Of a stretch of DNA of 32,000 nucleotides, positions 4,914-25,207 are shown piece after piece. The first letter of the stretch is position 1; each line of letters opens with the position of its first letter. The notes below the pieces were generated by a model that made no database searches, had not been told where the DNA came from, and was given only the letters and a program-made list of their open reading frames with translations. A program made the translations under genes and the position numbers. The DNA comes from Candidatus Acidiferrum sp. (lineage in GTDB: Bacteria; Acidobacteriota; Terriglobia; Acidiferrales; UBA7541): contig JBEKOE010000014.1 of NCBI GenBank assembly GCA_049522075.1, forward strand, positions 4,284-36,283. Direction: 5' to 3'.

Positions 4914-5221
4914 GTGAGGAACTCCTTTGGCCAACACTGAGCGAGAAGACTCAGCGGTTGTGGGGATTCGCCCGGTCCGGCGAGGGGGGTAAGCCCAAGC
5001 CATAGGAACGGGCCAAGCAGCACCGCTGGCATAATCCGCGTAACACTAGGCAAGTCAATACGTTAAGCGGATAAGCGGTAGCAGATCTGCGGGGCCAACC
5101 CTTCCCACGAATCGGGAATCGGCAAGCCACTGAAGGGGGAGGAGCAAGAGGACGGCCAGAGCGATGGAGATTGCAGAACGAGGATGGCACTGGGTTAGCA
5201 GCGGGCGCGGTCAGCGGAGAG

Positions 5222-9514: not shown

Positions 9515-10516
9515 ATGTCGATCCTGTACGAACTGCGCTATCCAACACGTTGGTACATGAAACTTTTGACCGTGATTCTGGCGCTGGTGTTTTTTGCCGC
9601 CATCGCCACGGTGGTCATTTCCGGGGTGCTGATCTACTGGATTGTGAAGCCGCAGCGCACGAGTTCAGAGATCAATATGGAGAGTTTTCCGGGGCGTCCC
9701 GATGAAATGGACTTTACGGTGGCGGGCCTGGGCACCCGCAAGGGCTGGTTCTTCCCCGGGTTGCGGGGGGCGCCGACAATCATTCTTTGCCACGGCTATC
9801 AATCCAGCCGGGGCGAATTGCTCACGTTGGTTTCCGCGCTGCAGGACCACCAGTACAACGCGTTCGTATTTGATTTTGCGGCCCATGGCGGGAATGACGG
9901 CTTGACCACGTTCGGCTATCGCGAGTCGGACGAAGTGCGCGCCGCCATCGATACATTGGCCACACGAAATGACGTGGACGCCGAGCGATTCGGCTTGTGG
10001 GGCTACAATCTGGGCGCGTACGCTGCGCTGCGCGAGGCGGAGAAGGACCCTCGCGTGCAGGCGCTGGTGCTCGATTCCGTCTACGACAACCCGAAACAGA
10101 TGGTGAAGATCGGCGTGGAAAAGACCGGCGTGGGCGGATTCCCGCTGATGGTGAGGTCCGCGCAAACGAGTTTTGAGTGGCTGAACTACGCTTACAAGAA
10201 TGATCCGCCGCTTTCCGCAAAGCTGAAACGCATGTCTGACGTGCCGATCCTGTTTATCGGCGCAGCGGATGATCCGGAACTCGCCGCGATAACGCGTGAG
10301 ATGTTCTTGAAGGCGGGCGAGCCGCGCGAACAGGCCATTGTGGCGCACGGGAATTTTGTGAACCTGCCGGATGACGAGAAGCGTATGTACGAAAATCGCG
10401 TGGTGACGTTTTTCCTAACGCGGCTGCCGATCACGAGTGTCGAGCCCGCCCCGGTCAAGCCCGCCCCCAAGGCTGCTGCCCCCAAGAGTGCTCCCGTCAA
10501 CCCCGTTGCTCACTGA
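9515..10516 (+). CDS. Membrane-anchored alpha/beta-hydrolase-fold protein with Asn in place of the nucleophile Ser; Pro/Ala/Lys-rich C-terminal tail
   Basis: TM helix LLTVILALVFFAAIATVVISGVLIYWIV; alpha/beta-fold blocks ILCHGYQSS, FDFAAHGGNDG, nucleophile elbow LWGYNLGAYA (G-Y-N-L-G), LFIGAADDP, VAHGNF. The start is ambiguous (ATG 9515 or ATG 9557, MKLLT...). Confidence 0.75.
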   Translation: MSILYELRYPTRWYMKLLTVILALVFFAAIATVVISGVLIYWIVKPQRTSSEINMESFPGRPDEMDFTVAGLGTRKGWFFPGLRGAPTIILCHGYQSSRGELLTLVSALQDHQYNAFVFDFAAHGGNDGLTTFGYRESDEVRAAIDTLATRNDVDAERFGLWGYNLGAYAALREAEKDPRVQALVLDSVYDNPKQMVKIGVEKTGVGGFPLMVRSAQTSFEWLNYAYKNDPPLSAKLKRMSDVPILFIGAADDPELAAITREMFLKAGEPREQAIVAHGNFVNLPDDEKRMYENRVVTFFLTRLPITSVEPAPVKPAPKAAAPKSAPVNPVAH

Positions 10517-12169
10517 GTCTTCGCGCTGAACTTTGTAGACGAACCAACCGCTCGTTTGGAGTTCGAGCGGATCGGTCGAGCATGTCCACGGCGGTTTCAC
10601 CACGAATCTGCAAGGCTTGGAAGACTGCAATAGGTAGCCTTCTTTCGGTTGATCTGAATCCCACGATTGAATCTCGTTGCGCAAGTAGAAGCTGAGGCTG
10701 AATTGCTGACCGCGTGGCATTGCCGTTACGAAAGTTTGCTCTGGCGGGATCTGCGCGGCGCGCAGTTCTTGCGCGATGGTTTTCCCAGAGGGGTCATAAC
10801 GCAGAAATAATGGCGCCAAATGATTGAAGAAAAGGAGAAGAGCGAGAATCGGAACCACGCAGAGCGAGGACAGAGCGAGTGTGGTTTGCTTTGCGTTTTT
10901 CTTGGCAGCCAAGACCAAGTTTGCGAGACCAAAGAGCAGCATGATCCATCCTGCTCCCGTGGCCGCACTCGCCGTGAATCGATTAGCGCCGAAGTGCAAG
11001 GACCAAAGCACTGGGGCCACAAGGACAATTGGAATGGCCCCGCCGAGTATGAGCAAGCGAAACGTCCACCCCTCTTGCGGAACGAGGCGCACGTAGGCTC
11101 TGGAAAGAAGGAGACCGACAAGAGGCATGGCGGGGAGGATGTAGCCGGGCAGCTTGGATTTGGAGATGGAGAAGAATACGAGACAGAAGATGACCCAGCA
11201 AACGGCGAGGAGCGTGGCGTCGGAGGGGCGACGTTGCGGCCACACGCGCAAAGCCCCATGGAGGGCGGACCAGACCAGCGCCAGGGTCCATGGGGCGAAG
11301 GCGATGAGGAGTACAGGAACGAAAAACCAGCAAGGCTGGATGTGCTGGAATTCGGGGGTGAGGTAGCGTTTGAAATTGTGCTCGATGATGAAGATGCGGA
11401 AGAAATCGGGATTGCGACGGGAACAAAGGATGTACCAGGGGAGGGCGGTAAGACAGAAGCTGGCAATGGCTACCGGGTGGAGGCAGCGGAAGGCGTCACG
11501 CCAGCGTCTGGTGAGTGCCGCCCACAACAGAACGCCACCGCCGGGAAGAACGATGGCGGCGGGACCCTTCGCGAGCGTGGCGAGGCCGAGGAAAAAGCCG
11601 AAGAAAATCAAGGCGAGCCACGTCGTTCGCTGGACGGGCGGCGATTGTTGGTTGCGGGTGAGGCCCAGGATGATGGCCGCAAAGACCAGCGCAATGGTGA
11701 GCGCGCCGGCGAAGGGCATGTCCGTGGCGGCGGCGTGCGAAAAGCCGATCATGCCCACGGTGGTGGGAAGAAGAAGCAGCAACCAGCGCGCGGTCCACGG
11801 ACCATAGACACGCCAGGCCAGCCACGCCATGGCCAGGGTAGCGAGCAGCGCCGCGAAGGCGCTGGGAAAACGCGCCGCGGCATCGGTTACCCCGAAGAGT
11901 TTGAAGCTGAGCGCCGCGCCCCAGTATAGAAGGACTGGCTTTTCAAACCAGGGCTTGCCGTAGAGGCGTGGCGTAACCCAGTCGCCGGATTCGTGCATTT
12001 CGCGGGCAATCCAGGCGTAGCGCGGCTCATCTGGCCCCACAAGGCCGATGGCGCTTAAATTGTGGAAATAGCAGAGATAGAGTGTGGCGATAATGAGGAC
12101 AAGCCAGAGGGCGCGCGCGGCCATCGAGAGGGAATCGCCATCACGGCTGGAGTTGTCAGTTTGTGTCAC
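10415..12169 (-). CDS. GT39/ArnT-like (PMT_2) polyprenyl-phosphate-sugar-dependent glycosyltransferase, polytopic membrane protein
   Basis: 584-aa ORF with many hydrophobic helices. The N-terminal loop GPDEPRYAWIAREMHESGDWVTPRLYGKPWFEKPVLLYW is typical of ArnT/PMT-type GT-C enzymes. Start is GTG 12169 or ATG 12124. The 3' end overlaps the convergent gene by 102 nt. Confidence 0.85.
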   Translation of the reverse strand: MTQTDNSSRDGDSLSMAARALWLVLIIATLYLCYFHNLSAIGLVGPDEPRYAWIAREMHESGDWVTPRLYGKPWFEKPVLLYWGAALSFKLFGVTDAAARFPSAFAALLATLAMAWLAWRVYGPWTARWLLLLLPTTVGMIGFSHAAATDMPFAGALTIALVFAAIILGLTRNQQSPPVQRTTWLALIFFGFFLGLATLAKGPAAIVLPGGGVLLWAALTRRWRDAFRCLHPVAIASFCLTALPWYILCSRRNPDFFRIFIIEHNFKRYLTPEFQHIQPCWFFVPVLLIAFAPWTLALVWSALHGALRVWPQRRPSDATLLAVCWVIFCLVFFSISKSKLPGYILPAMPLVGLLLSRAYVRLVPQEGWTFRLLILGGAIPIVLVAPVLWSLHFGANRFTASAATGAGWIMLLFGLANLVLAAKKNAKQTTLALSSLCVVPILALLLFFNHLAPLFLRYDPSGKTIAQELRAAQIPPEQTFVTAMPRGQQFSLSFYLRNEIQSWDSDQPKEGYLLQSSKPCRFVVKPPWTCSTDPLELQTSGWFVYKVQREDSVSNGVDGSTLGGSSLGGGLDRGGLDTRDRQPR

Positions 12170-12192
12170 GGGTCGTTGGCTCTAAAATCAAA

Positions 12193-12365
12193 CAAGTTGC
12201 TGAAAAAACCGGAGAAGGCTTTCTTCAGGGGCTTCCGCCAAAAATCGGCGGACGCAGAGGGCGCGAAAGCCCATTCGCTTCGGGAGCTTTACGCCGGGGC
12301 CCTTCGAACCTCAGGGTGAACTGAAGCCCCGGCCTCCCAAAGAGAAAGTCTTCTTCAGCAGCTTG
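12193..12365. repeat. MITE-like structured element bounded by ~18-bp imperfect inverted repeats
   Basis: Left arm caagttgctgaaaaaacc (12193-12210) versus the reverse complement of the right arm gtcttcttcagcagcttg (12348-12365) gives 14/18 matches. Internal hairpins: ctgaaaaaa...tttcttcag (12200-12228), ccgcc-aaaaatc-ggcgg, gggc-gcgaaa-gccc, ccggggc...gccccgg. It lies in the divergent GT39 / acyltransferase intergenic region. Confidence 0.35.
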
Positions 12366-12432
12366 CTAAGTGTATCTTGGAATGGTGCAAGTCCGTCATA
12401 CTGGCGCGAAAGGACGGGGATACTTAGCACTG

Positions 12433-13341
12433 ATGAAGGAATGGCTGCAATATGCGGTGGCGTGGAGCGCGGTTAAGACGCTAGGCCTCCTGCCGCGACC
12501 GATGGCGCGAAGCGTCGCGGCAGCAGGGGCACGCCTGCTGCTCGTGGCGCGGCCCAAATTGCGCAAGACTGCGGAGTCTAATTTGCGGCTGGCGTTTCCC
12601 GATTGGACAGACGTGCAGCGCCACGAAGTCTTGCGCAAGATGACCCGCAATCTGGGGTGGATGGCCGCGGAGTTCGCGCGATTTCCGAAGTACACTCGTG
12701 AAAATATCGAGCAGGTCGTCATCCTGGATGGGCATGAGAATTTTCTTGCGGGGCAGAGCCGCAGCAAGGGTGTGCTCTACCTCACCGGCCACATCGGCGC
12801 TTGGGAACTTTCCTCGTTTGCGCACGCGCTTTACGGCTACCCGCTGCATTACATGGCGCGACCGCTGGATAACGAGCCGCTGGACCGCATGGTGAATCAC
12901 TACCGGGGGCTTTCGGGGAACCTGCCGATCTTCAAGAACGAATCGGCGCGCGTGATGCTAAGGGTGCTGAAGGAGACTGGTACGATCGGCATCCTTGCGG
13001 ACCAAAACACCATGCCGGAGGAGGGGGCGTTCGTGGATTTTTTTGGCACCCCGGCTTGTACAACGACTGGAATCGCGCGCGTGGCGCTGCACACGGATGC
13101 CGCGGTGGTGCCGGGCTACGCTTATTGGGATGAAAATCTTCGCAAGTACCGCTTGCGCTTCGAACCGCAAGTGGAATTGGTGCGTACGGAAGATCCCGAG
13201 CGCGACATTCTGGAAAACACCAGACGGTTTACCAAAGTGATCGAGGAGATCATCCGCAAGCATCCCGAGCAGTGGGTGTGGGTGCATGCGAGATGGAAGA
13301 ACCGGCCGCAGGGTGAACCGCCTTTGTATGACTTTTTATGA
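12433..13341 (+). CDS. LpxL/HtrB-family lipid A (Kdo2-lipid IVA) late acyltransferase / lysophospholipid acyltransferase family
   Basis: ORF 12370..13341. I start at ATG 12433 (MKEWLQYAVAWSAVKTLGLLP, an N-terminal anchor typical of the family). Catalytic HX4(D/E) motif LTGHIGAWEL; ILADQN; PEQWVWVHARWK near the C-terminus. Confidence 0.8.
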   Translation: MKEWLQYAVAWSAVKTLGLLPRPMARSVAAAGARLLLVARPKLRKTAESNLRLAFPDWTDVQRHEVLRKMTRNLGWMAAEFARFPKYTRENIEQVVILDGHENFLAGQSRSKGVLYLTGHIGAWELSSFAHALYGYPLHYMARPLDNEPLDRMVNHYRGLSGNLPIFKNESARVMLRVLKETGTIGILADQNTMPEEGAFVDFFGTPACTTTGIARVALHTDAAVVPGYAYWDENLRKYRLRFEPQVELVRTEDPERDILENTRRFTKVIEEIIRKHPEQWVWVHARWKNRPQGEPPLYDFL

Positions 13342-13389
13342 AGAGCAGAGAACCGCTATGTTGAAGCAACAGCAGAGGAGAAGCGGGCA

Positions 13390-14406
13390 ATGAAAAGCAC
13401 AGCGAGAGATGTGGCTCAAGCCGTTGGAGCGAAGGTGGAAGGTGATGGATCGTGGGAATTGACCGGTGTGGCCGCACCGGAGCGAGCGGGGTCGCACGAT
13501 TTGATTTACGTCGAAACGGCAAAGCATGCGGAGCGCGCGGTGGCTTCGGCAGCCGCTTGCGTCGTGGCGGGGGAGGGAATTGCCCTGCCGGGGAAGACGG
13601 TGCTACGCAGTGCGCAGCCCAAGGTGGCGTTTGCAAAGGCGGCGGCAATCCTGTTGGAGCGGCGGCCGATTGCGAGCGGAATCCACCCGACGGCGATTGT
13701 AGCGCCGCTGGCCCGGGTCGCGACGAGCGCGAGCATCGGAGCGTATGCGGTGATCGGCGAGAATGCACACATTGGAGAGGGCACGCAGATCGGGGCGCAC
13801 TGCGTGATTGGCGCAGGATGCTGGATCGGCGAAGATTGCCGCGTGCACCCGCACGTTACACTGTATGCCGGGGTGCGATTGGGAAGCCGCGCGGAGATTC
13901 ACGCGGGAGCCGTCATCGGCGCCGATGGATTCGGGTATGCGTTTGATGGAGAGCGATACTGGAAATTTCCGCAGGCAGGGATCGTGGAGATTGGCGAGGA
14001 TGTTGAGATTGGAGCGAATACGACGGTGGACCGCGGTTCGCTGGATGACACGCGTATCGGCGCGGGTGTGAAGCTGGACAATCTGGTGCACGTGGGCCAC
14101 AACGTCCAGATCGGCGAGCACACCGTGATTGCGGCGCAGACGGGCATTTCGGGCTCCTGCAAGCTGGGGCATCACGTGGTCTGCGGCGGACAAGTGGGCA
14201 TGGGGGAACATTGCACGTTAGAGGATCGAGTGATCGCTGGGGGGCAGGCGGGGATTCTAAATGGCAAGACCGTCCGGAGTGGGGAAACAGTTTGGGGAAC
14301 GCCGGCGCGGCCACTGGAAAAGTTCAAAGAGCAATATGCGCGGTTCGCACGGCTGCCGGAGTTGGCGGAGCGCGTCAAGAAGCTGGAGACTCGCCGGAAC
14401 CTTTAG
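13390..14406 (+). CDS. lpxD: UDP-3-O-acylglucosamine N-acyltransferase
   Basis: 338 aa. LpxD-type N-terminal domain ([19 protein letters not shown]..., AACVVA), followed by a long left-handed beta-helix of hexapeptide repeats (IHPTAIVAP...[44 protein letters not shown]...) and a C-terminal helix. Confidence 0.9.
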
Positions 14407-14528: not shown

Positions 14529-14666
14529 GGGTACTGCACGTACCGGAGTATTGATTTTCTAGGGTGGTTTTTTGGAAGTGTAAGGCAATAGGGAAGTTAG
14601 CTAAGCTGCTGCTTGCGGCTTAGGATCTTTGGGGGGGTTGTACGTTTCGCTCGAGGGGGAGCCGAG

Positions 14667-16709
14667 ATGGGGTCGTATGTTCGTCTGGGGGAGGAGTTGC
14701 CAGTCGCGCCTGCGCCTGCACCATGGCGGCAGGAGACTTGGGCAGAGCAGGTTGAGAAGGCCGTAGAGAGCGGCACAGAGTATCTCCTGTCCATCCAAGC
14801 TGAGGAAGGGTATTGGCACGGCGAACTCGAAGCCGACACCACCCTCGAATCCGATTACATCTACTACCTTCACGTACTCGATAAGGCCGATCCGGCGCGC
14901 ATCGCCAAGCTGGCCAACTATGTCCGGCGGAAGCAAATGGATGATGGCGGTTGGCCGATTTATCCCGGCGGCACGTCGGAACTTAACGCCACTTCAAAGG
15001 CTTATTTCGCACTAAAGCTGGCAGGGGATTCTCCCGACGCGCCGCACATGGTGAAGGCGCGCGAGGTTGTGCACCGCTTGGGTGGATTGGAACACACGAA
15101 TTCCTACGTGCGTTTTTATCTGGCGCTGGTGGGAGCGGTGGGCTGGGAGCTGGTGCCAGCGATTCCGCCGGAACTGGTGCTGTTGCCGAGCTGGTTCTAT
15201 TTCAATATTTACGAGATGTCTTCGTGGACACGCGGGATCGTAATTCCGATGGCGATATTGTCGTCGGTGCGGCCGGAGTTTCGCCTGCCAGAACACGCGC
15301 GGGTGGACGAACTGTTCAAGGATCCCACGCAGAAGACGGCGGCATTCAACTGGAGCAAGCAGATACTCTCCTGGAAGAACCTGTTTCTGGCGGTCGATCG
15401 CGGGTTGAAGCTGTACGAAAAACTGCCGTGGAAACCGCTGCGGCAAAAGGCCATCAAGGAAGCCAAGCAATGGATGCTGGAGCACATGGAGAGGACCGAG
15501 GGGCTCGCGGCCATCTATCCCTCGATGATGAACTCGATTTTTGCGCTGATGGCGCTGGGGCATGGACCGGAAGATCCGCTGACGTGGCGGGAGATTAAGG
15601 AATTTTCACGGTTTGAAATCGAGGAAGGCGACACCATTCGACTGCAGCCTTGCGTTTCCCCGGTGTGGGATACGTGCATCGCGATGGTGGCTCTTGAAGA
15701 GGCGGGCTTACCGGCGGATCATCCGGCGTTGGTGAAGGCGGCGGACTGGATCCTGACAAAACAAGTTTTGGGCAAGGGAGATTGGCAGGTCAAGAACAAG
15801 GAAGCCGAGCCGGGCGGCTGGGCGTTTGAGTTCCGCAACGATTTTTATCCCGACGTGGATGACACTGCGTTCGTGTTGATGGCGCTGCAGCGGGTGAAAT
15901 TCCCCGACGAAAAGAGGATGGAAGCAGCGATGCGCCGGGGAATCCAGTGGCTGCTGAGCATGCAGAACCGCGATGGCGGCTGGGGCGCTTTTGATCGCGA
16001 TAATGACCGACAGATCCTGTGCAACATTCCGTTCGCGGACCACAACGCCATGATCGATCCTTCCACGGCGGACGTGACCGCGCGGGTGGTGGAATGCCTG
16101 GGGCGGTTTGGGTGGCCCGGCGATCATCCGGTAGTTCACAAGGCCGTGCAGTTCCTGATAAAAGATCAGAGCAAGGACGGATCGTGGTTCGGGCGCTGGG
16201 GCGTGAATTATGTGTACGGTACAAGCGGGGTATTGCGAGCGCTGGAGACCGTGTCGCTGACGGCGCAAGATTATTGCGTGCGGGCTGTCGCCTGGCTGCG
16301 CCAGGTGCAGAAGGCCGATGGGAGCTTTGGCGAGTCGCTGCGCAGCTATGAGGTCGTCTCCAGCAAAGCGCAGGGCAATAGCACGCCATCGCAAACCGCC
16401 TGGGGATTGATTGGATTGCTTGCCGGCGCGGATCCCGACGATCCGGCGATTGCGCGTGCCGCCGCGTATCTGGTGCAGCAACAGAATGCCAACGGTTCCT
16501 GGAGCGAAGAGGATTTTACCGGCACGGGCTTCCCCGGCGTGTTTTATCTGAAATACCACCTCTACAAGCACTCTTTCCCAGTGTACGCGCTGGCTCGTTA
16601 TCGCAATCAGGCCAGCCGCGCGCAGGAGTATTGCGCCGTTAAATTCCGGCCTGGCGAATTCCGCGCGCGCCGCGGGCTGTATTCCGCGCGCGAGCGTAGC
16701 GCATCCTAA
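14667..16709 (+). CDS. shc: Squalene-hopene cyclase
   Basis: ORF 14613..16709. ATG 14667 is preceded by GGGGGAG. Motifs: DVDDTA (the DxDD protonation motif) and multiple QW-type repeats (KQMDDGGWPIY, MQNRDGGWGAF, QSKDGSWFGRWG, QKADGSFGES, QNANGSWSEE). Confidence 0.95.
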   Translation: MGSYVRLGEELPVAPAPAPWRQETWAEQVEKAVESGTEYLLSIQAEEGYWHGELEADTTLESDYIYYLHVLDKADPARIAKLANYVRRKQMDDGGWPIYPGGTSELNATSKAYFALKLAGDSPDAPHMVKAREVVHRLGGLEHTNSYVRFYLALVGAVGWELVPAIPPELVLLPSWFYFNIYEMSSWTRGIVIPMAILSSVRPEFRLPEHARVDELFKDPTQKTAAFNWSKQILSWKNLFLAVDRGLKLYEKLPWKPLRQKAIKEAKQWMLEHMERTEGLAAIYPSMMNSIFALMALGHGPEDPLTWREIKEFSRFEIEEGDTIRLQPCVSPVWDTCIAMVALEEAGLPADHPALVKAADWILTKQVLGKGDWQVKNKEAEPGGWAFEFRNDFYPDVDDTAFVLMALQRVKFPDEKRMEAAMRRGIQWLLSMQNRDGGWGAFDRDNDRQILCNIPFADHNAMIDPSTADVTARVVECLGRFGWPGDHPVVHKAVQFLIKDQSKDGSWFGRWGVNYVYGTSGVLRALETVSLTAQDYCVRAVAWLRQVQKADGSFGESLRSYEVVSSKAQGNSTPSQTAWGLIGLLAGADPDDPAIARAAAYLVQQQNANGSWSEEDFTGTGFPGVFYLKYHLYKHSFPVYALARYRNQASRAQEYCAVKFRPGEFRARRGLYSARERSAS

Positions 16710-16717
16710 GCAAAACA

Positions 16718-17761
16718 ATGCGGTATCCCCTCCGGCTGATCTTCGATTCCGCCAAACATCTCGCTAGACACAAGCTGCGCGGTGAGCGGAAATTCGCCGT
16801 CATGCTTAGGCTAGAGCCCCAGGGCGGCTATGCGGGCACGTGCGGCGGATCGAACGGCGGAAATGGGCAGGCGGCATCGCCGCGCAGGACGCCACTCAGC
16901 GTGGAGCAATGCCTGGCGGCGATGGAGGAGTGCGACACGCCCGTGGTGGCCATCTGCGGCGGCGAACCGCTGGAGTATGAAGGAATCGCGGAGCTGACGC
17001 GCACGATCCTGGACCGCGGCAAGCATGTGTTCCTTTGCACGGACGGCACGCTGATACGGCGGCGCATGCACATGATCCTGCCGGTGACCAGTTTCTTCTG
17101 GAACGTGAGGCTTAATGGCACGGAAACCGTCCACGATTCACGCGCGGGCAAGCCGGGGCAATTCGCGGAAGCGCTGGACGGCGTAAAGGCCGCGAAGAAT
17201 GCGGGCTTTTTTGTGGTGGTGACGTCGACGGTATGCCCGGACACCAATGTGCGGGATCTGGCGGCGCTATATGAGAAGCTGCATGGCATGCACGTGGATG
17301 GTTACATGCTCGCGCCGGCGTACCTTCCCGGAAAAGTTTGCCGGGACGCGAGCGCCAAATTCCACGCCGCGATGCACCAGCGGTTCGCGGAAATCAGCGA
17401 TTCCCTGGGTGATTATAATTTGCTGGTGTCACCGGTCTATTTGGAATACCTGCGCGGGGAACGCGAACTGGATTGCAGCGTGTGGGGGAGCCCGGTATAC
17501 GGGCCGGGCGGCTGGTCTGGTCCTTGCTATTTGCTGGACTACAACCTCGAGAAGAGCTACAAAGCGCTGCTGGAAAATACGCTTTGGGAGAATTTTGGCC
17601 GGGGCATTAACCCGCGGTGTGAGACCTGCTCGTGTCACGCCGGCTTTGAGACGGCGGCTTTGCTGGGAGTGAATCGCAAAACGGGTGATGCCTGGAAGAT
17701 GCTGGCTTGGCAATTCGGCGGCGGATTGGGCGAGAAGCGAGAAAGCGTGCGGAAGCCATGA
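16718..17761 (+). CDS. hpnH: HpnH-like protein (adenosylhopane synthase homolog) lacking the canonical radical-SAM CX3CX2C triad
   Basis: 347 aa, starting 8 nt after the shc stop. HpnH-like blocks: FAVMLRLEP, LSVEQCLAAMEECDTPVVAICGGEPL, FLCTDG, VRLNGTETVHD, and a C-terminal DUF3463-like segment CSVWGSPVYGPGGWSGPCYLL...CETCSCHAGFE. Where HpnH normally has CNLACAGC, this protein reads QGGYAGTCGGSNGG. Confidence 0.8.
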   Translation: MRYPLRLIFDSAKHLARHKLRGERKFAVMLRLEPQGGYAGTCGGSNGGNGQAASPRRTPLSVEQCLAAMEECDTPVVAICGGEPLEYEGIAELTRTILDRGKHVFLCTDGTLIRRRMHMILPVTSFFWNVRLNGTETVHDSRAGKPGQFAEALDGVKAAKNAGFFVVVTSTVCPDTNVRDLAALYEKLHGMHVDGYMLAPAYLPGKVCRDASAKFHAAMHQRFAEISDSLGDYNLLVSPVYLEYLRGERELDCSVWGSPVYGPGGWSGPCYLLDYNLEKSYKALLENTLWENFGRGINPRCETCSCHAGFETAALLGVNRKTGDAWKMLAWQFGGGLGEKRESVRKP

Positions 17762-18765
17762 CGACACTTGTGACGGGGGCGGCAGGATTTCTGGGCAGCC
17801 ATGTGGCGCGGCAATTAGTGGCGCGCGGCGATGATGTGCGCGTACTGGTGCGTGCCTCGAGCAGCAATCGCGCGATCAGCGATTTGTCGCTGGAATACGT
17901 AACGGGGGATCTGCGAGATGCGGGTTCGTTGGAACGCGCAATGAACGGCGTGCAGCGCGTGTTTCACGTGGCGGCGGATTACCGGCTGTGGGCGAAAAAT
18001 CCGCAGGAGATCTACGATTCGAACGTGGGCGGGACAAAAAATTTGCTGGAGGCGGCCAAGCGCGCCGGCGTTGGCCAATTGATTTACACCAGCACCGTGG
18101 CGACGATCGCGGTGGACCGGCCCGAGCTCCCCAACGAATTCACGGAGGCAAAGCTCGAGGAGATGATCGGGCACTACAAGCGCTCGAAATGGATGGCCGA
18201 GCAGGAAGTGTTGAAGGCGGCGAAAGAAGGATTCCCCGCGATTGTGGCAATGCCCACCACGCCGGTGGGGCCGTGGGATTGGAAGCCCACGCCCACGGGA
18301 AAGATCATTCTCGATTTTCTGAATGGGAAGATGCCGGGCTACGTCGATACGGGGTTGAACTTTGTGGGCGTGGAGGAGTGCGCGGCGGGGCATCTGCTGG
18401 TTTCGGAGAAGGGCAAGATTGGCGAGCGGTATTTGCTGGGAGCGGAGAATCTGACGCTGAAGGAAGTGCTGGATACCTTGGCGAGGATCACGGGTTTACG
18501 GGCGCCAGGGATGAAAATCCCGCACTCGGTGGCGTTGGGTGTAGCCTACGTGGAAAGCGCGTTTTCACGATTGCTTGGGAAAGAGCCGGGGATTCCGGTA
18601 GAAGGCGTGAAGATCGCGCGGCACAAGATGTTTGTGGATGCTTCGCGGGCGCGGCGGGAATTGGGATTTCAGCCGGGGCCGGTGGCGGCGGCGCTGGAGC
18701 GCGCGGTGCGGTGGTATCAGGCGAATGGGTATGTGCGGGCGGGGCGGGCGAAGAAGATGAGGTAA
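17758..18765 (+). CDS. hpnA: Hopanoid-associated NAD-dependent sugar epimerase/dehydratase family protein
   Basis: The ATG at 17758 overlaps the hpnH stop as ATGA (17758-17761). Rossmann motif VTGAAGFLGSHV; SDR catalytic YKRSK (YxxxK); extended-SDR layout; position between hpnH and hpnG. Confidence 0.85.
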   Translation: MTTLVTGAAGFLGSHVARQLVARGDDVRVLVRASSSNRAISDLSLEYVTGDLRDAGSLERAMNGVQRVFHVAADYRLWAKNPQEIYDSNVGGTKNLLEAAKRAGVGQLIYTSTVATIAVDRPELPNEFTEAKLEEMIGHYKRSKWMAEQEVLKAAKEGFPAIVAMPTTPVGPWDWKPTPTGKIILDFLNGKMPGYVDTGLNFVGVEECAAGHLLVSEKGKIGERYLLGAENLTLKEVLDTLARITGLRAPGMKIPHSVALGVAYVESAFSRLLGKEPGIPVEGVKIARHKMFVDASRARRELGFQPGPVAAALERAVRWYQANGYVRAGRAKKMR

Positions 18766-18800
18766 AGGAAGTAAAGGATGTGAAGGAAGTAAGTAAGGAA
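18762..18800 (+). repeat. Purine-rich 9-mer tandem repeat (gtaaaggaa gtaaaggat gtgaaggaa gtaa-gtaaggaa) in the hpnA-hpnG junction
   Basis: Read directly. It starts within the hpnA stop codon (TAA 18763-18765) and ends 6 nt before the hpnG ATG. It supplies several AAGGA/GGAAG Shine-Dalgarno-like cores and contains an in-frame GTG (18780) as an alternative hpnG start. Confidence 0.7.
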
Positions 18801-18806
18801 GAGCTG

Positions 18807-19592
18807 ATGAGGGTGCTGGTGACATTTGCGGTGGAAGCGGAATTTGCGCCGTGGCGCAAGCGATGGCCATTCGAGATCGCAGCGGCCGGGGGAATTCGAT
18901 TCTGGCGGGCGGACATCGATGACTGCAACGTCACAGTTCTTTTGACGGCGATGGGGACCTTAGCAGCGGTGTTGACGGTTGACACCTTTTTGCGAAAGGA
19001 GAATGAGGACAAATCCTTCGCTGTTTGTATTTCTAGCGGGCTAGCGGGCGCTTTACGGGAAACACTGGGACCGGGAGATATCATTGCACCACGAATGCTC
19101 GTGCCTGAGACCGTCTACCCGGAGCGGCAAGAGAATCGATTGGAGGTTAATGCGGCATTGCGGGAACTGGCGCTGAAGTGTGGGGCCAAAGGGACTGATT
19201 GTCTTTGGACTGCCGACCAAGTTCTCGTCAAGGCTGCCGATAAGAAGATTTATTCTTCACGGGCAGAAGCAGTGGACATGGAGAGCTTTGGGATTGCCAC
19301 GGAAGCCGGAGCATGGGGATTACGAACCGTAGTCGTCCGGGCAATAAGCGATTCGGTAGTAGAGGACCTCCCGCTAGACTTCAATCGGACCCTGTCGGAC
19401 AACGAACAAATCAGTGTGTCAAAGGTGTTGATCCAGCTGGCGAAGAGGCCGTCGGCAATCCCTGCGATGGTCAAGTTCGGCCTGCAGAGTCGAAGGGCCG
19501 CGGAATCGCTGGCAACGTTTCTGGATAAGTATCTTCGAGAATTAAGCAAAGTGTCTGCATTAAGCGGTTCAAATGAAATGGCGACGCGATGA
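18807..19592 (+). CDS. hpnG: Hopanoid-associated nucleoside phosphorylase/nucleosidase (PNP_UDP_1 family)
   Basis: This is the C-terminal 261 aa of the listed ORF 17988..19592; the upstream part of that ORF overlaps hpnA out of frame. MRVLVTFAVEAEF..., SSGLAGAL, AVDMESFGIA (a nucleosidase-type DMES motif). The alternative in-frame GTG 18780 would add 9 aa. Confidence 0.8.
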   Translation: MRVLVTFAVEAEFAPWRKRWPFEIAAAGGIRFWRADIDDCNVTVLLTAMGTLAAVLTVDTFLRKENEDKSFAVCISSGLAGALRETLGPGDIIAPRMLVPETVYPERQENRLEVNAALRELALKCGAKGTDCLWTADQVLVKAADKKIYSSRAEAVDMESFGIATEAGAWGLRTVVVRAISDSVVEDLPLDFNRTLSDNEQISVSKVLIQLAKRPSAIPAMVKFGLQSRRAAESLATFLDKYLRELSKVSALSGSNEMATR

Positions 19593-20695
19593 GCGGAGCT
19601 GAGACGGTGGTGGAGCAGGTGAGAATGTTGGGGCCAATACCGAAGACGATGCGGGCGGGGGTGTTCCGGGAGAAGGGCGTGGTGCGGGTGGAGGAAGTGC
19701 CTGTGCCGGAGGTGCGGGACGGCGAGGTGCTTATTAAGGTGGCGGCGTGCGGCATCTGCGGCACGGACATCAAGAAGATATTTCAGCGCTACGTGGAACC
19801 GCCACAGATCCTGGGCCATGAGCTGGCTGGAACAGTTGCGGCGCTGGGGCGCGGCGTGACCAAATGGAAATTGGGCGACCGTGTGATGAGTTTCCACCAC
19901 GTTCCTTGCGGGACATGTTTCTACTGCAGGAACCGGCTTTTTTCACAATGCACGCAATACAAAACGACCGGGTTAACGGGGGGGTTCACGCCGAACGGCG
20001 GAGGCTTTGGGGAATACGTGAAGGCGATGCCGTGGGTAGCGGAGCGGGGGATCGTGGCGTTGCCGGACAATGTGACGTTTGAAGAGGCCACGTTCATCGA
20101 ACCCATCAATACCATCATGAAGGCGGTGCAGAAGGCGCGCGTCACGGCTGGCGAGACGGTGCTCATTGCCGGGTGCGGTCCCATCGGCCTGCAGCTTCTG
20201 ATGGTTGCCAAATATGGGGGAGCGCGCATCTATACGAGTGACCCCATGGCCACGCGTCGTGAGAAAAGCTTAAGATTGGGAGCTGTGGAGTCTTTTGACC
20301 CCATAAATGATAAGCTTGTGGAAGCGTTGCACGCACGTACCGAGGGACGGGGGGTAGACGCGGTCCTGGTGGCTGTAGCGCATCCGGCCGTGGTCGCAGA
20401 TGCTTTGGCGGCGGCGCGGCCCGGTGGCAGGGTGCTTCTGTTTGCCGCAAACGACCCTGTCACGAGAATTGAGTTTCCCGCCGCGGCTATAGGGATAGAC
20501 GAGAAAGAAATCTTGGGCAGCTACAGCGCGGCCATGGACATCCAAGAAAGCGCGGCAGCGCTGGTGCTGGAAAAGAAACTGCCGGTGATGGAGATTGTGA
20601 CGCACCGGTTTCCGCTAAGTAGAATCCAAGAGGGCTTGGAACTGGCGGCGAGGCCCACGGAAACTTCGCTGAAGGTCCTGATCACGCACGAATGA
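19589..20695 (+). CDS. MDR-superfamily zinc-dependent dehydrogenase (polyol / threonine dehydrogenase-like), canonical active site
   Basis: The start ATG overlaps the hpnG stop (ATGA 19589-19592); alternative starts are ATG 19625 and ATG 19649 (MRAGVF...). Catalytic-zinc motifs ACGICGTD, GHE and EP; structural zinc CGTCFYCRNRLFSQC; Rossmann GCGPIG. Confidence 0.85.
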   Translation: MSGAETVVEQVRMLGPIPKTMRAGVFREKGVVRVEEVPVPEVRDGEVLIKVAACGICGTDIKKIFQRYVEPPQILGHELAGTVAALGRGVTKWKLGDRVMSFHHVPCGTCFYCRNRLFSQCTQYKTTGLTGGFTPNGGGFGEYVKAMPWVAERGIVALPDNVTFEEATFIEPINTIMKAVQKARVTAGETVLIAGCGPIGLQLLMVAKYGGARIYTSDPMATRREKSLRLGAVESFDPINDKLVEALHARTEGRGVDAVLVAVAHPAVVADALAAARPGGRVLLFAANDPVTRIEFPAAAIGIDEKEILGSYSAAMDIQESAAALVLEKKLPVMEIVTHRFPLSRIQEGLELAARPTETSLKVLITHE

Positions 20696-21807
20696 GAGCA
20701 GCATCCACAAAAAGGACAGAGATGGGGGTGGAAGAAGTGCTGGCCCCGACGAAGATCCTCGTGCCATCAAGAATGACGGCGGCGGTGCTATACGGCAGCG
20801 AAGATCTACGCGTCGAGCAAATCGATGTGCCTGCATTGTCGGCCGAAGAAGTGCTTCTGCGGGTGCGCCTGGCCCTGACCGACGGCACCGACCTGAAGGT
20901 CTGGATACGCGGCTACCACGCGAAGATGATCCGGCCACCGGCGGTGTTTGGCCACGAAGTGGTTGGCGAGATTGTCGCCGTGGGGAAGCGCGTGGACACG
21001 AAATGGCGGCTGGGTACGCGGGTGGTAGCCGCCAACTCCGCGCCCTGCTTCCGCTGCTACCAATGCCGCCGCGGCCAGGAAAATCTTTGCGAGGATCTGC
21101 TTTTTAACAACGGAGCATACGCCGAATACATGCGCATTCCCGGACGCATCGTCCGGGAGAACATGCTGGAAGTGCCGCACTCAATAGACGACCACAGCGC
21201 CGCGCTGGTGGAACCCCTGGCATGCGTGCTGCGCGGGATTCATGAAATGGAAGTGCGCACGGGCGACACGGCTGCGGTGATTGGCTGCGGTCCCATCGGA
21301 CTGAAATTTGTGCGCATGTTGTCGCGTCGCGGCGTACGAGTGATCGCGCTGGCCCGCCGGGAGGCTCCCCTGGAGGTTGCACGCAAGCTGGGTGCCGTAG
21401 CGACCATCAATGTCACCGAGGTTGCCGACGTTGCCGGTGCGGTGAAGGCGCTGACCGATGAGCAGCGCGGGCCGGACTGCGTGGTGGAGGCCGCCGGTAA
21501 TCCCGCGACTTGGCAGCAAGCGCTGGCGATGGTGCGACGCGGCGGGGTGGTGAATTTCTTCAGCGGGCTCCCCAAGGACACGCGGGTGGAAATCGCGCCG
21601 GCCACCATTCACTATTCGGAAATCAAGATTATTTCACCGTTCCATCACACGCCGCGCTTTATCCGTGAAGCGATGGAAGCGATCCGCCGTGGCGATATAT
21701 CGGCCCAGGATTTTGTCACCGAGGAGATTGGCCTGGTCGATCTGCCGCAGGCGTTTGAGCGCATGAAGGCGCGCAGCGGCGAAATCAAGCTGGCCGTGAG
21801 GCCGTAG
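20692..21807 (+). CDS. MDR-superfamily dehydrogenase paralog with the catalytic-zinc Cys replaced
   Basis: The start ATG overlaps the preceding stop (ATGA 20692-20695); the alternative start ATG 20773 (MTAAVLYG...) matches typical MDR N-termini. Structural zinc CFRCYQCRRGQENLC, GHE, VEP and GCGPIG are retained, but the ACGICGTD position reads RLALTDGTD. Confidence 0.8.
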   Translation: MRAASTKRTEMGVEEVLAPTKILVPSRMTAAVLYGSEDLRVEQIDVPALSAEEVLLRVRLALTDGTDLKVWIRGYHAKMIRPPAVFGHEVVGEIVAVGKRVDTKWRLGTRVVAANSAPCFRCYQCRRGQENLCEDLLFNNGAYAEYMRIPGRIVRENMLEVPHSIDDHSAALVEPLACVLRGIHEMEVRTGDTAAVIGCGPIGLKFVRMLSRRGVRVIALARREAPLEVARKLGAVATINVTEVADVAGAVKALTDEQRGPDCVVEAAGNPATWQQALAMVRRGGVVNFFSGLPKDTRVEIAPATIHYSEIKIISPFHHTPRFIREAMEAIRRGDISAQDFVTEEIGLVDLPQAFERMKARSGEIKLAVRP

Positions 21808-21909: not shown

Positions 21910-23859
21910 ATGCTGTGTCCAGACGAGCTTGAAATTGCTGCCAGACTGCCGACCAACGGGTGCGCGGCAGATGAAGCGCAAGCGTACACGCGGTGGCTGG
22001 CGACGCACCACTACGAAAATTTCAACGTTGTGTCCTGGCTCCTGCCGAAGGAACTGCACCAGCATTTCTATAATGTTTATGCGTATTGCCGGTGGGCGGA
22101 TGATTTGGGCGACGAAATCCCTGAGAGCGCGCGCGCACTAGAGTTGTTGGACTGGTGGGAGCGGGAGTTAGACGCTTGCTATGAGGGTAGGCCCGTACAT
22201 CCCGTGTTTGTGGCTCTTCGCGAAACGGTGGTGGCCAAGGACGTTCCGAAGCAGCCGTTCGCGGATTTATTGAAGGCGTTTCGTCAGGACCAGGTGGTCA
22301 AGCGTTACGGGACTTGGGAAGGCGTGCTTGATTATTGTGTGTACTCGGCAAATCCCGTTGGGCGGCTGGTGTTGTACTTATGCGGTTACCGGGATGAGCA
22401 CCGACAACGGCTTTCCGATGCGACTTGTACGGCGCTGCAGCTCGCCAATTTCTGGCAGGATGTTTCGCGGGACCTGGAGAAGGGACGAATCTACATACCG
22501 CTGGAGCGGGCCGCGGCGCACGGCGTCAGCGAAAGCGACATTGTTGGAAAGAAATTCAGCGAGCGATATACCTCGCTGATGAGGGAGCTGATCAAGTACA
22601 CGCGAGAGCTTTTTGAAAAAGGCAGGCCACTATCCAGAATGGTGGACGGTAAATTAAGCGTGGATTTGGAGATGTTCAGCCGGGGCGGGCTGGCGGTACT
22701 GGATGCGATTGAAGCGATGGGCTATGACACGCTGAACCGTCGGCCCAAGGTGAGCAAGGGGAAGCAGGTGCGGTTGCTGGGGCGCGCGATGGTAGCGCAG
22801 GTGTTCGAGCGGGGCGGCGAGAATCGCAACGGAGGATTTCCACGCGAGGGGGCACGATTTTCGGTTGCGGATGGAACTTCGCGGGAAATTGCGGCGTCGT
22901 ACGCAGAATGCCATCGCATGGCTCGGGCTGCCCACAGCAACTTCTATCCCGCGTTTTTCCTTCTGCCCAAGGCGAAGCGGGACGGGATTGTGGCGCTGTA
23001 TGCGTTCATGCGCTTGATTGACAATGTTTCTGATGGAGGCGGCAACCTGGCGGAAAAGCAGCGCGGGCTGGCGAGGTGGCGTGCGGCGCTGGATCAGGCG
23101 ATTACCGGGCAATTGCAGGTGTTCGACGGAAACGCAGCGATGGAGTCTCCGGTGGCTACGCTGCCGGGCGCGGAAGAGGTGTTGCCTGCGCTGGTGGACA
23201 CGATCGGCCGCTTCGATATGCCAGCGCGTTATCTGCATGACCTGATTTCCGGCGCGGAAATGGACTTAACGATCCAGGCGTATCCCTCATTCGAGCGACT
23301 GGAGGAGTATTGCTACCGTGTGGCAGGGACCGTTGGACTGACCTGCACGCACATTTTCGGATTTCGAGATGCGAAGGCGCTGGACCTTGCGGAGAAGCTT
23401 GGGCTGGCGTTTCAACTGACGAATATTATTCGGGATGTCCGGGAAGATTACGCGAATGGCCGCGTGTATTTGCCGGAAGAGGATTTGGCGCGCTACAGCG
23501 TGGCGAAAACGGATTTTGGCAGAAACGAAGCCACGCTGGGCGTGCATGAATTGCTGCGGTTTGAGACAGAACGCGCCTGGAGGCTGTACGAGGAAGGCGC
23601 AAAGCTGCTTAGCCTGATTGACGAAGACAGCCGGGGCACGTTGTGGCTGCTGGTGCACACGTATAGCGCGTTGCTGGCGCGGATTGAATCAAAGGATTTT
23701 GCCGTTTTCGGGGAGCGTTTGCGGCTTTCCAAAGCGGAAAAACTGAAGTTGGTTGCCAAGGCGCGTTTCGGGCGCCCTACGGAAGAGAACATACTTGCAA
23801 AGCGTGATCGTGATCGGCGGGGGACTGGCGGGGCTGTCGGCGGGCGTCGCACTGGCTGA
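21910..23859 (+). CDS. hpnC/hpnD: Fused HpnC-HpnD: two tandem squalene/phytoene-synthase-fold domains (hydroxysqualene synthase-like + presqualene diphosphate synthase-like)
   Basis: A single 649-aa ORF. Domain 1: HHYENFNVVSWLLP, YCRWADDLGDE, NFWQDVSRDLEKGRIYIP. Domain 2: SNFYPAFFLLPKAKRDGIVALYAFMRLIDNVSDGG, NIIRDVREDYANGRVYLPEEDL. The domains are joined by a Gly/Arg-rich linker (ERGGENRNGGFPREGARF). Confidence 0.85.
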   Translation: MLCPDELEIAARLPTNGCAADEAQAYTRWLATHHYENFNVVSWLLPKELHQHFYNVYAYCRWADDLGDEIPESARALELLDWWERELDACYEGRPVHPVFVALRETVVAKDVPKQPFADLLKAFRQDQVVKRYGTWEGVLDYCVYSANPVGRLVLYLCGYRDEHRQRLSDATCTALQLANFWQDVSRDLEKGRIYIPLERAAAHGVSESDIVGKKFSERYTSLMRELIKYTRELFEKGRPLSRMVDGKLSVDLEMFSRGGLAVLDAIEAMGYDTLNRRPKVSKGKQVRLLGRAMVAQVFERGGENRNGGFPREGARFSVADGTSREIAASYAECHRMARAAHSNFYPAFFLLPKAKRDGIVALYAFMRLIDNVSDGGGNLAEKQRGLARWRAALDQAITGQLQVFDGNAAMESPVATLPGAEEVLPALVDTIGRFDMPARYLHDLISGAEMDLTIQAYPSFERLEEYCYRVAGTVGLTCTHIFGFRDAKALDLAEKLGLAFQLTNIIRDVREDYANGRVYLPEEDLARYSVAKTDFGRNEATLGVHELLRFETERAWRLYEEGAKLLSLIDEDSRGTLWLLVHTYSALLARIESKDFAVFGERLRLSKAEKLKLVAKARFGRPTEENILAKRDRDRRGTGGAVGGRRTG

Positions 23860-25207
23860 AGCGGGCTGGCGCGTGAGACTGTTCGAGCAGCGGCCATTTC
23901 TGGGCGGCCGGGCAACCTCCTACGTGTTGCCCGACGGCGAGCATGTGGACAATTGCCAGCACGTGACGCTAGGGTGCTGCACGAATCTGGAAGATTTCTA
24001 CCGGCGCGTGGGTTCCGCGGACAAAATCAAATTTTTCGATCGCCTGTTATTTCAGGATCCTCAAGGGCGCACGGGTGAAATGCAGGCCGGATTGTTGCCC
24101 GCACCGTTCCACATGCTCGGGTCGTTCGCGACATTTGCGCCGCTGACGCTGGCGGACAAATATTCCATTGGCCGCGCGATGATGGACATTCTGCGGAGCA
24201 AAGGGAAGCCGAAGGATCTTGAGGAAGCGGGCGGCATTTCGATGCTGGAATGGCTGCGGCGGCGCAAGCAGACGCCCGGCGCGATGGAGCGCTTTTGGAA
24301 GGTTGTTCTGGTGAGCGCGCTGGACGAGGAACTGGACCGCACCGATGCCCGCTATGGCGTGGACGTATTCTGGAAAGGATTCCTTTCGAATCGCGCCGGC
24401 TATCGTATGGGAGTTCCCGGGGTTCCGCTGGCGCAACTCTATGACGGCTGCAAAGCAGCAATCGAGCGCCGGGGCGGGGAAGTGAATCTGCGGGCGCCGC
24501 TGCGCGCGATACATCTGGCTGACGGGGCTATGAATGACGTGGAATTTGATGGGGGGCGCCGAGAAAGCGCCGATGCCTATGTATTTGCGCTGCCGCATGA
24601 GGCGCTTGCCGATCTTTTGACTGAGGAAATCAAGCGGCTCGAGCCAGCGCTCGCCAATCTGAGCAACATCCGCGTCGCGCCGATCACCGGCGTGCATTTT
24701 TGGTTCGATCGCGAAGTCATGCGAGAGCCGTTCGTGACCCTAATGGAAACCACGACGCAATGGATCTTCAACAAGACCGCGCTATATGGAACGGCGAACG
24801 GCGCCTCTGGAGAAAAAGGGCAATATCTACAGTTGGTCATCAGCGCATCCTACGATCTGCTGCAAAAGCCCCGGCAGGAGATCATTGATATGTGCCTGGC
24901 GGAGGTGCGGCAGGCGCTACCCGCAGCGCGCGAGGCCGTCCTGACCAAAGCCACGGTGATCAAGGAAGCCGCAGCTACATTTTCGCCGCAACCTGGCGTG
25001 GACCGTTGGCGTCCAATACAAGAGACCTCGATTCGCGGAATGTTTCTGGCGGGAGATTGGACGGCGACCGGCTGGCCCGCAACAATGGAAGGCGCGGTGC
25101 GCAGCGGCTATCTGGCTGCGGAGGCGGTTCTGCGGAAAGCGGGGACGCCAAAGACGATTCTTCAGCCGGACTTGCCGCCCGATGGATTGGTGAGGATGTT
25201 CTGCTAG
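23795..25207 (+). CDS. hpnE: Hydroxysqualene dehydroxylase (FAD-dependent amine-oxidase fold)
   Basis: ORF 23753..25207 has no ATG near the 5' end. Candidate starts are TTG 23753, TTG 23795 (preceded by GGAAGAG) and GTG 23804; all overlap the hpnC/D 3' end (stop 23857-23859). FAD Rossmann VIVIGGGLAGLSAGVALAEAGWRVRLFEQRPFLGGRA; C-terminal FLAGDWTATGWPATMEGAVRSG. Confidence 0.85.
   Translation: MQSVIVIGGGLAGLSAGVALAEAGWRVRLFEQRPFLGGRATSYVLPDGEHVDNCQHVTLGCCTNLEDFYRRVGSADKIKFFDRLLFQDPQGRTGEMQAGLLPAPFHMLGSFATFAPLTLADKYSIGRAMMDILRSKGKPKDLEEAGGISMLEWLRRRKQTPGAMERFWKVVLVSALDEELDRTDARYGVDVFWKGFLSNRAGYRMGVPGVPLAQLYDGCKAAIERRGGEVNLRAPLRAIHLADGAMNDVEFDGGRRESADAYVFALPHEALADLLTEEIKRLEPALANLSNIRVAPITGVHFWFDREVMREPFVTLMETTTQWIFNKTALYGTANGASGEKGQYLQLVISASYDLLQKPRQEIIDMCLAEVRQALPAAREAVLTKATVIKEAAATFSPQPGVDRWRPIQETSIRGMFLAGDWTATGWPATMEGAVRSGYLAAEAVLRKAGTPKTILQPDLPPDGLVRMFC

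Follow-up and report, generated by a model that had tools for sequence, protein, structure and literature searches.

Geohopanes derive from bacteriohopanepolyols (BHPs), which rank among the main membrane lipids of bacteria. For one step in the formation of their side chain, the conversion of ribosylhopane to bacteriohopanetetrol (BHT), no enzyme family is to our knowledge defined, and the activity is known solely from cell-free extracts. For over ten years it has lacked an assigned enzyme; papers from 2025 and 2026 describe it as unassigned or 'non-enzymatic', and ribonylhopane has been discussed in the literature as an intermediate. We have analysed a hopanoid (hpn) gene cluster containing two genes for zinc-dependent medium-chain dehydrogenases (MDRs), here termed MDR1 and MDR2, within a 32,000-nucleotide stretch of DNA from Candidatus Acidiferrum sp. 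(GenBank assembly GCA_049522075.1, contig JBEKOE010000014.1, positions 4,284 to 36,283 of the forward strand), which is the window referred to throughout. An original prediction for this DNA had rightly stated that the step lacks an assigned gene, and had proposed the pair as the missing side-chain reductase. Our results indicate that the association of the pair with the cluster is strong, but that its position fails to single out the conversion of ribosylhopane to BHT; judged from the sequences, the proposed function seems reasonable without being specifically supported. The reading that we tentatively favour, as possible rather than probable, is that the pair may form a module for two redox steps on the ribose-derived side chain of a hopanoid intermediate.

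The closest described arrangement is that reported for Acidobacteria by Sinninghe Damsté et al. (2017, Front Microbiol 8:968, PMC5462960), who defined a 'cluster C' composed of hpnA-hpnG-ug1 and a 'cluster A' composed of ug2-hpnC-hpnD-hpnE. In Table S1 of that study ug1 appears under the name 'Zn-dependent alcohol dehydrogenase (ca. 370 AA)' and ug2 under that of 'Zn-binding alcohol dehydrogenase (ca. 350 AA)', with function 'not established'. According to the same authors, ug2 is found in all strains of subdivisions 1 and 3 (SD1 and SD3), SD1 genomes with split clusters retain ug1 next to hpnA-hpnG, SD3 keeps hpnA-hpnG-ug1, and a fusion of hpnC and hpnD is typical of subdivision 2 (SD2, or 'gp2'), which corresponds to the Acidoferrales. 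The window itself falls in Candidatus Acidoferrum/Acidiferrum of this order, going by the names of 96%-identical proteins and of the related loci. The gene order in the window and the sizes of the two proteins (368 aa, and 361–371 aa depending on the start codon) match these definitions, MDR1 being ug1 and MDR2 being ug2; their relatives elsewhere are denoted MDRa and MDRb, respectively. The gene association itself was already published in 2017 and is not a new discovery. What is new is that ug1 and ug2 represent an older two-gene module that also occurs outside hopanoid producers, that in these lineages it has an NAD-type and NADP-type make-up, that the genes have overlapping codons, and that in other phyla the module is linked to hpnC-hpnD. 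For the conversion of ribosylhopane to BHT the 2017 study proposed hpnA, and our literature search found no paper proposing ug1 or ug2 for this role.

In the window the genes shc, hpnH-like, hpnA, hpnG, MDR1, MDR2, the hpnC-hpnD fusion and hpnE follow one another in this order, all co-directional on the + strand. The open reading frames (ORFs) at 19589–20695 (MDR1) and 20692–21807 (MDR2) and the neighbouring hpn matches place the pair between hpnG and hpnC/D, as had been predicted. Also, stop and start codons overlap as ATGA at both the hpnG/MDR1 and the MDR1/MDR2 junctions; the overlaps are confined to these two upstream junctions, MDR2 being separated from the hpnC-hpnD gene by 102 nt. The overlaps are real, but the stoichiometric production that the original prediction read from them is what such an arrangement may suggest and not a fact. 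On identical metagenome contigs the gene callers place the start of MDR2 30 nt later, at 20722 behind an AAGGA motif, which would yield a protein of 361 instead of 371 aa. The four-nucleotide overlap is retained in 68 of 80 species-level genomes at the MDR1/MDR2 junction and in 65 of the 80 at hpnG/MDR1, far above the chance survival of an in-frame start, and this conservation favours the overlapping start of MDR2.

These 80 loci were obtained by scanning one genome per species with a narrow MDRa alignment, which returned Acidoferrales only. Without exception, and to the extent that the contigs cover it, they keep the single-strand order shc-(hpnH)-hpnA-hpnG-MDR1-MDR2-hpnC/D-hpnE, with MDR1 being 59–95% identical to that of the window. 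MDR1 and MDR2 are under strong purifying selection and are the most constrained genes of the cluster, with non-synonymous divergences (dN) of 0.07–0.2 and omega values of 0.05–0.12, at or below those of shc, hpnCD and hpnE. A protein identical to MDR1 is encoded on dozens of metagenome contigs with unchanged gene order. A second sample, of 80 metagenome loci, was collected with an MDRb profile and is biased toward soil and peat as well as toward the query sequence. Within it, MDRa lies directly upstream of MDRb in 54 of 63 evaluable loci and hpnC/D directly downstream of MDRb in 57 of 70, and the pair is followed by hpnC/D in 48 of the 49 evaluable loci that contain it. The exceptions of this sample are the loci L099 and L170 and some MDRb-like singletons, taken up below. 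Where pair-containing loci have enough upstream flank, hpnA is nearly always found (38/39), and an HpnG-like ORF separates hpnA from MDRa in 36 of 38; even a contig with only 43% identity has the order hpnA-hpnG-MDRa-MDRb. The conserved co-directional position of the two genes in the Acidoferrales, in the metagenome sample and in the published SD1 and SD3 clusters makes them members of the hpn cluster. Since this association is real, deep and broad, a role of the pair in hopanoid or squalene lipid biosynthesis is likely. The predicted clustering with hpnG in other organisms, in turn, holds inside the Acidobacteriota (80/80, and 36/38 of the metagenome loci), whereas outside this phylum the pair accompanies hpnC-hpnD, with no hpnG in the stretches read.

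The two dehydrogenases share only 29% identity with each other, and both have the fold of the MDR superfamily, as inferred from matches to the Pfam domains ADH_N and ADH_zinc_N (PF08240 and PF00107) above the gathering scores; Glu_dehyd_C is matched as well. In MDR1 the ligands of the catalytic zinc (C57, H77, E78 and E171), the cysteines of the structural zinc (107/110/113/121) and the GxGxxG motif are invariant in 65 orthologues, which bears out the complete zinc sites and the Rossmann motif ascribed to it beforehand. The aspartate D218, at the end of strand β-2, is likewise invariant in these orthologues, and an aspartate ending this strand is the usual NAD signature. The MDR1 clade is moreover recognisable by an HHxPC motif and a TAGFxPxGGG insertion. 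MDR2 has one substitution among the catalytic ligands: H88, E89 and E174 and the structural cysteines C119/122/125/133 are invariant across species, and the window has Asp at residue 64, the position of the catalytic cysteine, where 36 Acidoferrales species have Cys and 32 have Asp, and where Vicinamibacteria have Cys. This aspartate was absent from the original prediction. At the end of β-2 MDR2 reads [AG][RK]R, which in an alignment with the NADP(H) ketose reductase 1e3j falls on 'TAR'. As judged from these motifs, the pair in this lineage would comprise one NAD-type enzyme (MDR1) and one NADP-type, ketose-reductase-like enzyme (MDR2).

Both proteins resemble the polyol-dehydrogenase branch of zinc MDRs, which includes threonine dehydrogenase (TDH), sorbitol dehydrogenase (SDH), the ketose reductase 1e3j and galactitol-1-phosphate 5-dehydrogenase. 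They share with it the two-domain fold as defined by Pfam, the catalytic Cys/His/Glu(+Glu) zinc site, the four-Cys structural zinc and the GxGxxG motif. They differ from it in scoring below the family cut-offs, in the MDRa-specific TAGFxPxGGG insertion and HHxPC, and in the Asp-for-Cys exchange found in MDR2 of about half of the species. The best solved relatives of both MDRs, matched in the PDB at 105–139 bits, are threonine dehydrogenases, a Thermus alcohol dehydrogenase (ADH), the whitefly NADP(H) ketose reductase, sorbitol dehydrogenase, galactitol-1-P dehydrogenase and an uncharacterised Sinorhizobium enzyme, and the substrates of the nearest ones are polyols, sugars or threonine. Neither protein can be placed in a curated family, as both fall far below every NCBIfam cut-off. 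TDH is the best such family for MDR1, with 172 bits (MDR2: 154) against a cut-off of 458 for TIGR00692, and 165 and 152 bits, respectively, against 380 for NF003808. The name given to these proteins by JGI is sorbitol / L-iditol 2-dehydrogenase; human and sheep SDH match MDR1 at 122–125 bits, no better than TDH, an ADH or the ketose reductase, and no curated SDH model is among the NCBIfam matches.

Two steps, an oxidation and a reduction, are suggested because the pair consists of two intact enzymes of opposite cofactor type. Such steps could act consecutively on a vicinal-hydroxyl group, of the sugar or polyol type, in an intermediate of the hopanoid pathway, and the ribose-derived C5 side chain freed by HpnG is the sole group of this kind that the known enzymes of the cluster are known to make. 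The NADP-type MDR2 would then reduce a carbonyl, a candidate reaction being that of open-chain ribosylhopane to BHT, while the NAD-type MDR1 would oxidise a hydroxyl, the candidates being the conversion of a lactol to ribonylhopane and that of the C-34 hydroxyl to a ketone, from which epimerisation or amination could proceed. Overall, the scheme would be like a 'polyol pathway' (aldose to polyol to ketose) run on a lipid-bound pentose; we infer here the substrate, the direction and the link to the ribosylhopane step. Two-enzyme polyol pathways combine an NADPH-dependent aldose or ketose reductase with an NAD+-dependent polyol dehydrogenase, as in xylose reductase/xylitol dehydrogenase and aldose reductase/sorbitol dehydrogenase. 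The likeness lies in the pairing of an NADP-type reducing enzyme with an NAD-type MDR polyol dehydrogenase, a pentose-derived substrate being plausible. However, the classical pathway uses an aldo-keto reductase and a soluble substrate, while the present pair consists of two MDRs and would have a lipid-bound one. A role on the side chain is favoured by the fact that ug1 stays with hpnA-hpnG both in split SD1 clusters and in SD3, and by the conservation of the hpnG/MDR1 overlap. A literature search for known BHT stereoisomers in Acidobacteria, which could have supported an epimerase, found nothing relevant. In a wider version, which we regard as quite improbable, the pair would be a general 'pentose-tail' module for 5-substituted 5-deoxyriboses that was recruited in Acidobacteria to the product of HpnG, with MDR2 (NADPH) converting ribosylhopane to BHT and MDR1 (NAD+) carrying out a new side-chain oxidation that gives ribonyl-, keto- or epimerised BHPs.

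A number of observations weigh against a two-step module devoted to the side chain. The product of HpnG is not singled out as the substrate, because the pair touches hpnC/D as often as hpnG, because it goes with hpnC/D outside the Acidobacteria, and because it persists in squalene-capable organisms without hopanoid side-chain genes. The same follows from Chloracidobacterium thermophilum, which is scored as producing hopanoids and carries shc, hpnH and hpnG but lacks ug2 (PMC5462960), and from a survey of 48 alphaproteobacterial hpn clusters, which reported no further candidate genes nearby. Also, the cofactor split of the pair is not kept in all lineages, the position of the NADP-type signature of MDRb being occupied by Asp or Glu in two loci, L093 and L097. 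Searching 1.8 billion cluster representatives for relatives of MDR1, we found the next full-length ones to be only ~40–44% identical, and their genomic contexts are the principal new finding. Vicinamibacteria (SD6) carry orthologues of MDR1 (45%) and MDR2 (45–50%) one after the other, in the same order, with no hpn genes within 8 kb; SD6 strains and metagenome-assembled genomes (MAGs) are devoid of shc, hpnH and hpnG and do not produce hopanoids, yet have hpnCDE, so the occurrence of the pair is not restricted to hopanoid producers. The pair stands alone in a 72%-GC lineage, where its genes overlap by 4 nt, and in a 59%-GC lineage. An Armatimonadota MAG has the order aminotransferase-MDRa-MDRb-x-hpnC-hpnD-hpnE (L095, 8946–16323), and the 10 kb to either side contain neither shc nor hpnH nor hpnG. 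In a 39%-GC lineage there is an MDRa-MDRb-hpnC-hpnD operon with overlapping codons and a convergent hpnH fragment (L097, 2000–5838), and no hpnG on its 6.3-kb contig. In another locus (L170) MDRb alone precedes hpnCDE. Because the pair or MDRb precedes hpnC-hpnD in the Armatimonadota, in the 39%-GC lineage and in L170, the deeper link of the pair may be to squalene synthesis.

Other contexts are unrelated to hpn genes. At L099 (4992–12607) an MDRa-MDRb pair, 49% and 48% identical to that of the window, stands behind enolase-superfamily and heparinase II/III genes, on the opposite strand, and is followed by two methyltransferases, one of them PEMT/ICMT-like; no hpn genes are found within 10 kb, and this is a sugar-acid context. 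The contexts of L099 and of L091/L093 were read from contig stretches. In L179 (76–2649) a nucleotidyltransferase is fused to an MDRa-like dehydrogenase, 38% identical to MDR1, to give a protein of 602 aa; it adjoins a CDP-alcohol phosphatidyltransferase, in what resembles a lipid head-group pathway of the CDP-polyol or polyol-phosphate type. A solitary MDRa-like gene (41% identity) is widespread in Cyanobacteria, in unrelated contexts; with no hpn link and no partner gene found, we rejected it as support. MDRb-like singletons of ~47% identity occur among genes that by eye are of the housekeeping type (ThiL-, TsaE-, TsaB-, DedA- and TatD-like), and no functional clue was gained from them. As a pair, MDRa and MDRb represent an old and mobile two-gene module. 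As a separate observation, queuosine genes are neighbours of the MDR pair in two lineages unrelated to each other: QueF is found upstream of the Vicinamibacteria pair, adjacent to it in L086 (7601–10102) and one gene away in L085 (6779–10207), and in L093/L094 a radical S-adenosylmethionine (SAM) gene that is QueE-like by eye lies two genes downstream of the pair (L093, 2468–6650).

A further point against the side-chain module comes from the hpn cluster itself. The hpnH-like gene (16718–17761, +), of the adenosylhopane synthase family, matches TIGR03470 at 253.6 bits (cut-off 225), but has LEPQGGYAGTCGGSNGGNG in the region of the radical-SAM motif CxxxCxxC, which is not restored in any other reading frame. 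Of 75 Acidoferrales species, 33 carry the canonical CNLTCTGC in the gene between shc and hpnA, 12 (the clade of the window) have a full-length gene without the motif, 16 have a short remnant and 14 lack the gene. The hpnH-like protein of the window could be a pseudo-enzyme, or a second copy of hpnH could exist elsewhere in the genome. The neighbouring hpnG-like nucleosidase/phosphorylase gene (18711–19592, +; PF01048, PNP_UDP_1 family; 104 bits with TIGR03468, below the cut-off of 187) is hypervariable, with 48% aa identity where the flanking genes have 86–88% and a dN of 0.68 as against 0.07–0.14; its DNA is only 30–55% identical to that of a relative whose neighbouring genes are 95% identical. 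This gene evolves ~5–9 times faster than its neighbours in the groups with a motif-less, remnant or absent hpnH. Nevertheless, its ORF is open, and HpnG looks functional from its sequence because every group shares ~20 invariant or nearly invariant core positions (E44, M190-E191, S213-D214 and others). A decay of the C35 branch in this clade was considered as an argument against dependence of the MDRs on it and was dropped, given the conserved HpnG core and the possible hpnH copy elsewhere.

The proposal that the pair, perhaps as a hetero-oligomer, is generally the missing ribosylhopane reductase of hopanoid producers can draw on its adjacency to and overlap with hpnG, on a synteny conserved across Acidobacteriota, on the NADP-type of MDR2 and on the unassigned status of the step. 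However, one NADPH-dependent aldehyde reduction needs no two catalytically intact enzymes of opposite cofactor type. Moreover, MDRs of the polyol branch usually act on secondary alcohols or ketones, aldose reduction being usually the task of aldo-keto reductases. A distribution across the phyla of BHT producers is not observed, as the pair is absent near the 48 alphaproteobacterial hpn clusters, ug2 is missing from C. thermophilum and the cyanobacterial homologues are unlinked, while the pair is present in the non-hopanoid SD6. The pair cannot be a universal ribosylhopane reductase, and we regard this proposal as very unlikely. The other published candidate is HpnA (17758–18765, +, the start being adopted from gene calls on identical contigs), an extended short-chain dehydrogenase/reductase (SDR) bearing the annotation of hopanoid-associated 'sugar epimerase', whose match to TIGR03466 is strong (445.6 bits, cut-off 368). 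Like the MDR pair, it is an NAD(P)-dependent oxidoreductase encoded next to hpnG; unlike the pair, it is widespread in the hpn clusters of other phyla. If HpnA were the reductase, as Sinninghe Damsté et al. proposed, the MDRs would act downstream or be unrelated to the step. All acidobacteria with shc, hpnH and hpnG have the gene, which always clusters with hpnG (PMC5462960), and it occurs in 42 of the 48 hpnH-carrying alphaproteobacteria surveyed. On the other hand, hpnA has been reported to be dispensable for BHT in Burkholderia cenocepacia, some BHT producers lack it, and we find HpnA distinctly doubtful as the missing reductase.

A distinct scenario is that the pair serves the squalene branch (HpnC/HpnD/HpnE) instead of the C35 side chain, where it might convert a hydroxylated isoprenoid intermediate or by-product, such as hydroxysqualene or farnesol, or meet redox needs of HpnE. 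The operon of the 39%-GC lineage, the Armatimonadota locus devoid of nearby shc, hpnH and hpnG, the occurrence of MDRb by itself before hpnCDE, both in L170 and among split SD1 clusters, and the retention of hpnCDE together with the pair in SD6 are all consistent with it. Still, according to Sinninghe Damsté et al. (2017) hpnCDE suffice for squalene formation in E. coli, and ug2 was judged non-essential for squalene synthesis in C. thermophilum (PMC5462960). In addition, the pair does not adjoin hpnCDE in the SD6 contigs, SD3 keeps ug1 with hpnA-hpnG, and the nearest characterised relatives handle polar polyols rather than hydrocarbons, so that this role appears unlikely. With a comparable, low but real probability, the pair could have retained an ancestral function on a soluble sugar, polyol or polyol phosphate (epimerisation or aldose/ketose interconversion) and be in the hpn operon for co-regulation only, for example to supply a precursor of the polar head group of composite hopanoids, or as a hitch-hiker. 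Pairs beside heparinase II/III and enolase-superfamily genes or standing alone in several lineages, the nucleotidyltransferase fusion, the Glu_dehyd_C matches and the identity of the nearest relatives (TDH, SDH, GatD, ketose reductase) point in this direction. It is difficult to reconcile, however, with the inclusion of 48 of 49 evaluable pair-containing metagenome loci in hpn clusters, with an hpnG codon overlap conserved over deep divergence and with a constraint as strong as that on shc, and the cluster contains no transporter or kinase for a soluble substrate. In any case, a conserved and constrained dehydrogenase pair in the hpn operon of dominant soil Acidobacteria provides concrete genes to test. 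If the two-step module does act on the side chain, either the gap in the pathway would be filled or a new tailoring step, such as one giving an oxidised or epimerised BHP, would be gained, with a bearing on biomarker interpretation. If it does not, the travelling of the pair with hpnC-hpnD and its persistence in squalene-capable organisms that produce no hopanoids would point to an unrecognised accessory function in squalene synthesis.

The cluster begins with shc, for squalene-hopene cyclase (14613–16709, +; TIGR01507 782 bits, cut-off 431), whose start is placed at 14667 by the gene callers and which holds the same place in the Acidoferrales loci. Downstream of the pair, a single ORF at 21910–23859 (+) encodes the fusion of HpnC, hydroxysqualene synthase, and HpnD, presqualene diphosphate synthase (TIGR03464 519 bits and TIGR03465 415 bits); the corresponding tblastn matches are split in two pieces in some of the more distant Acidoferrales loci and in SD1-like loci. 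It is followed by hpnE, for hydroxysqualene dehydroxylase (23753–25207, +; TIGR03467 454 bits, cut-off 283), with a gene-caller start at 23804. A scan for promoters and terminators found sites no more common than in shuffled sequence, except for one promoter-like site upstream of shc. Directly upstream of shc, the window carries genes for a PMT_2 (ArnT-like) glycosyltransferase, a lipid A acyltransferase and lpxD (10415–14406). This lipid A-type neighbourhood is kept in 67–74 of 84 Acidoferrales loci as against 1–2 of the 80 loci of the metagenome MDRb sample, and a link between lipid A and hopanoids is possible. Further away, on the opposite strand, the window encodes a 782-aa transketolase-like protein (2655–5003, −) with Transketolase_N, pyrimidine-binding and C-terminal domains and a weak match to DXP_synthase_N, which has an additional Cys-rich C-terminal tail of ~90 residues.

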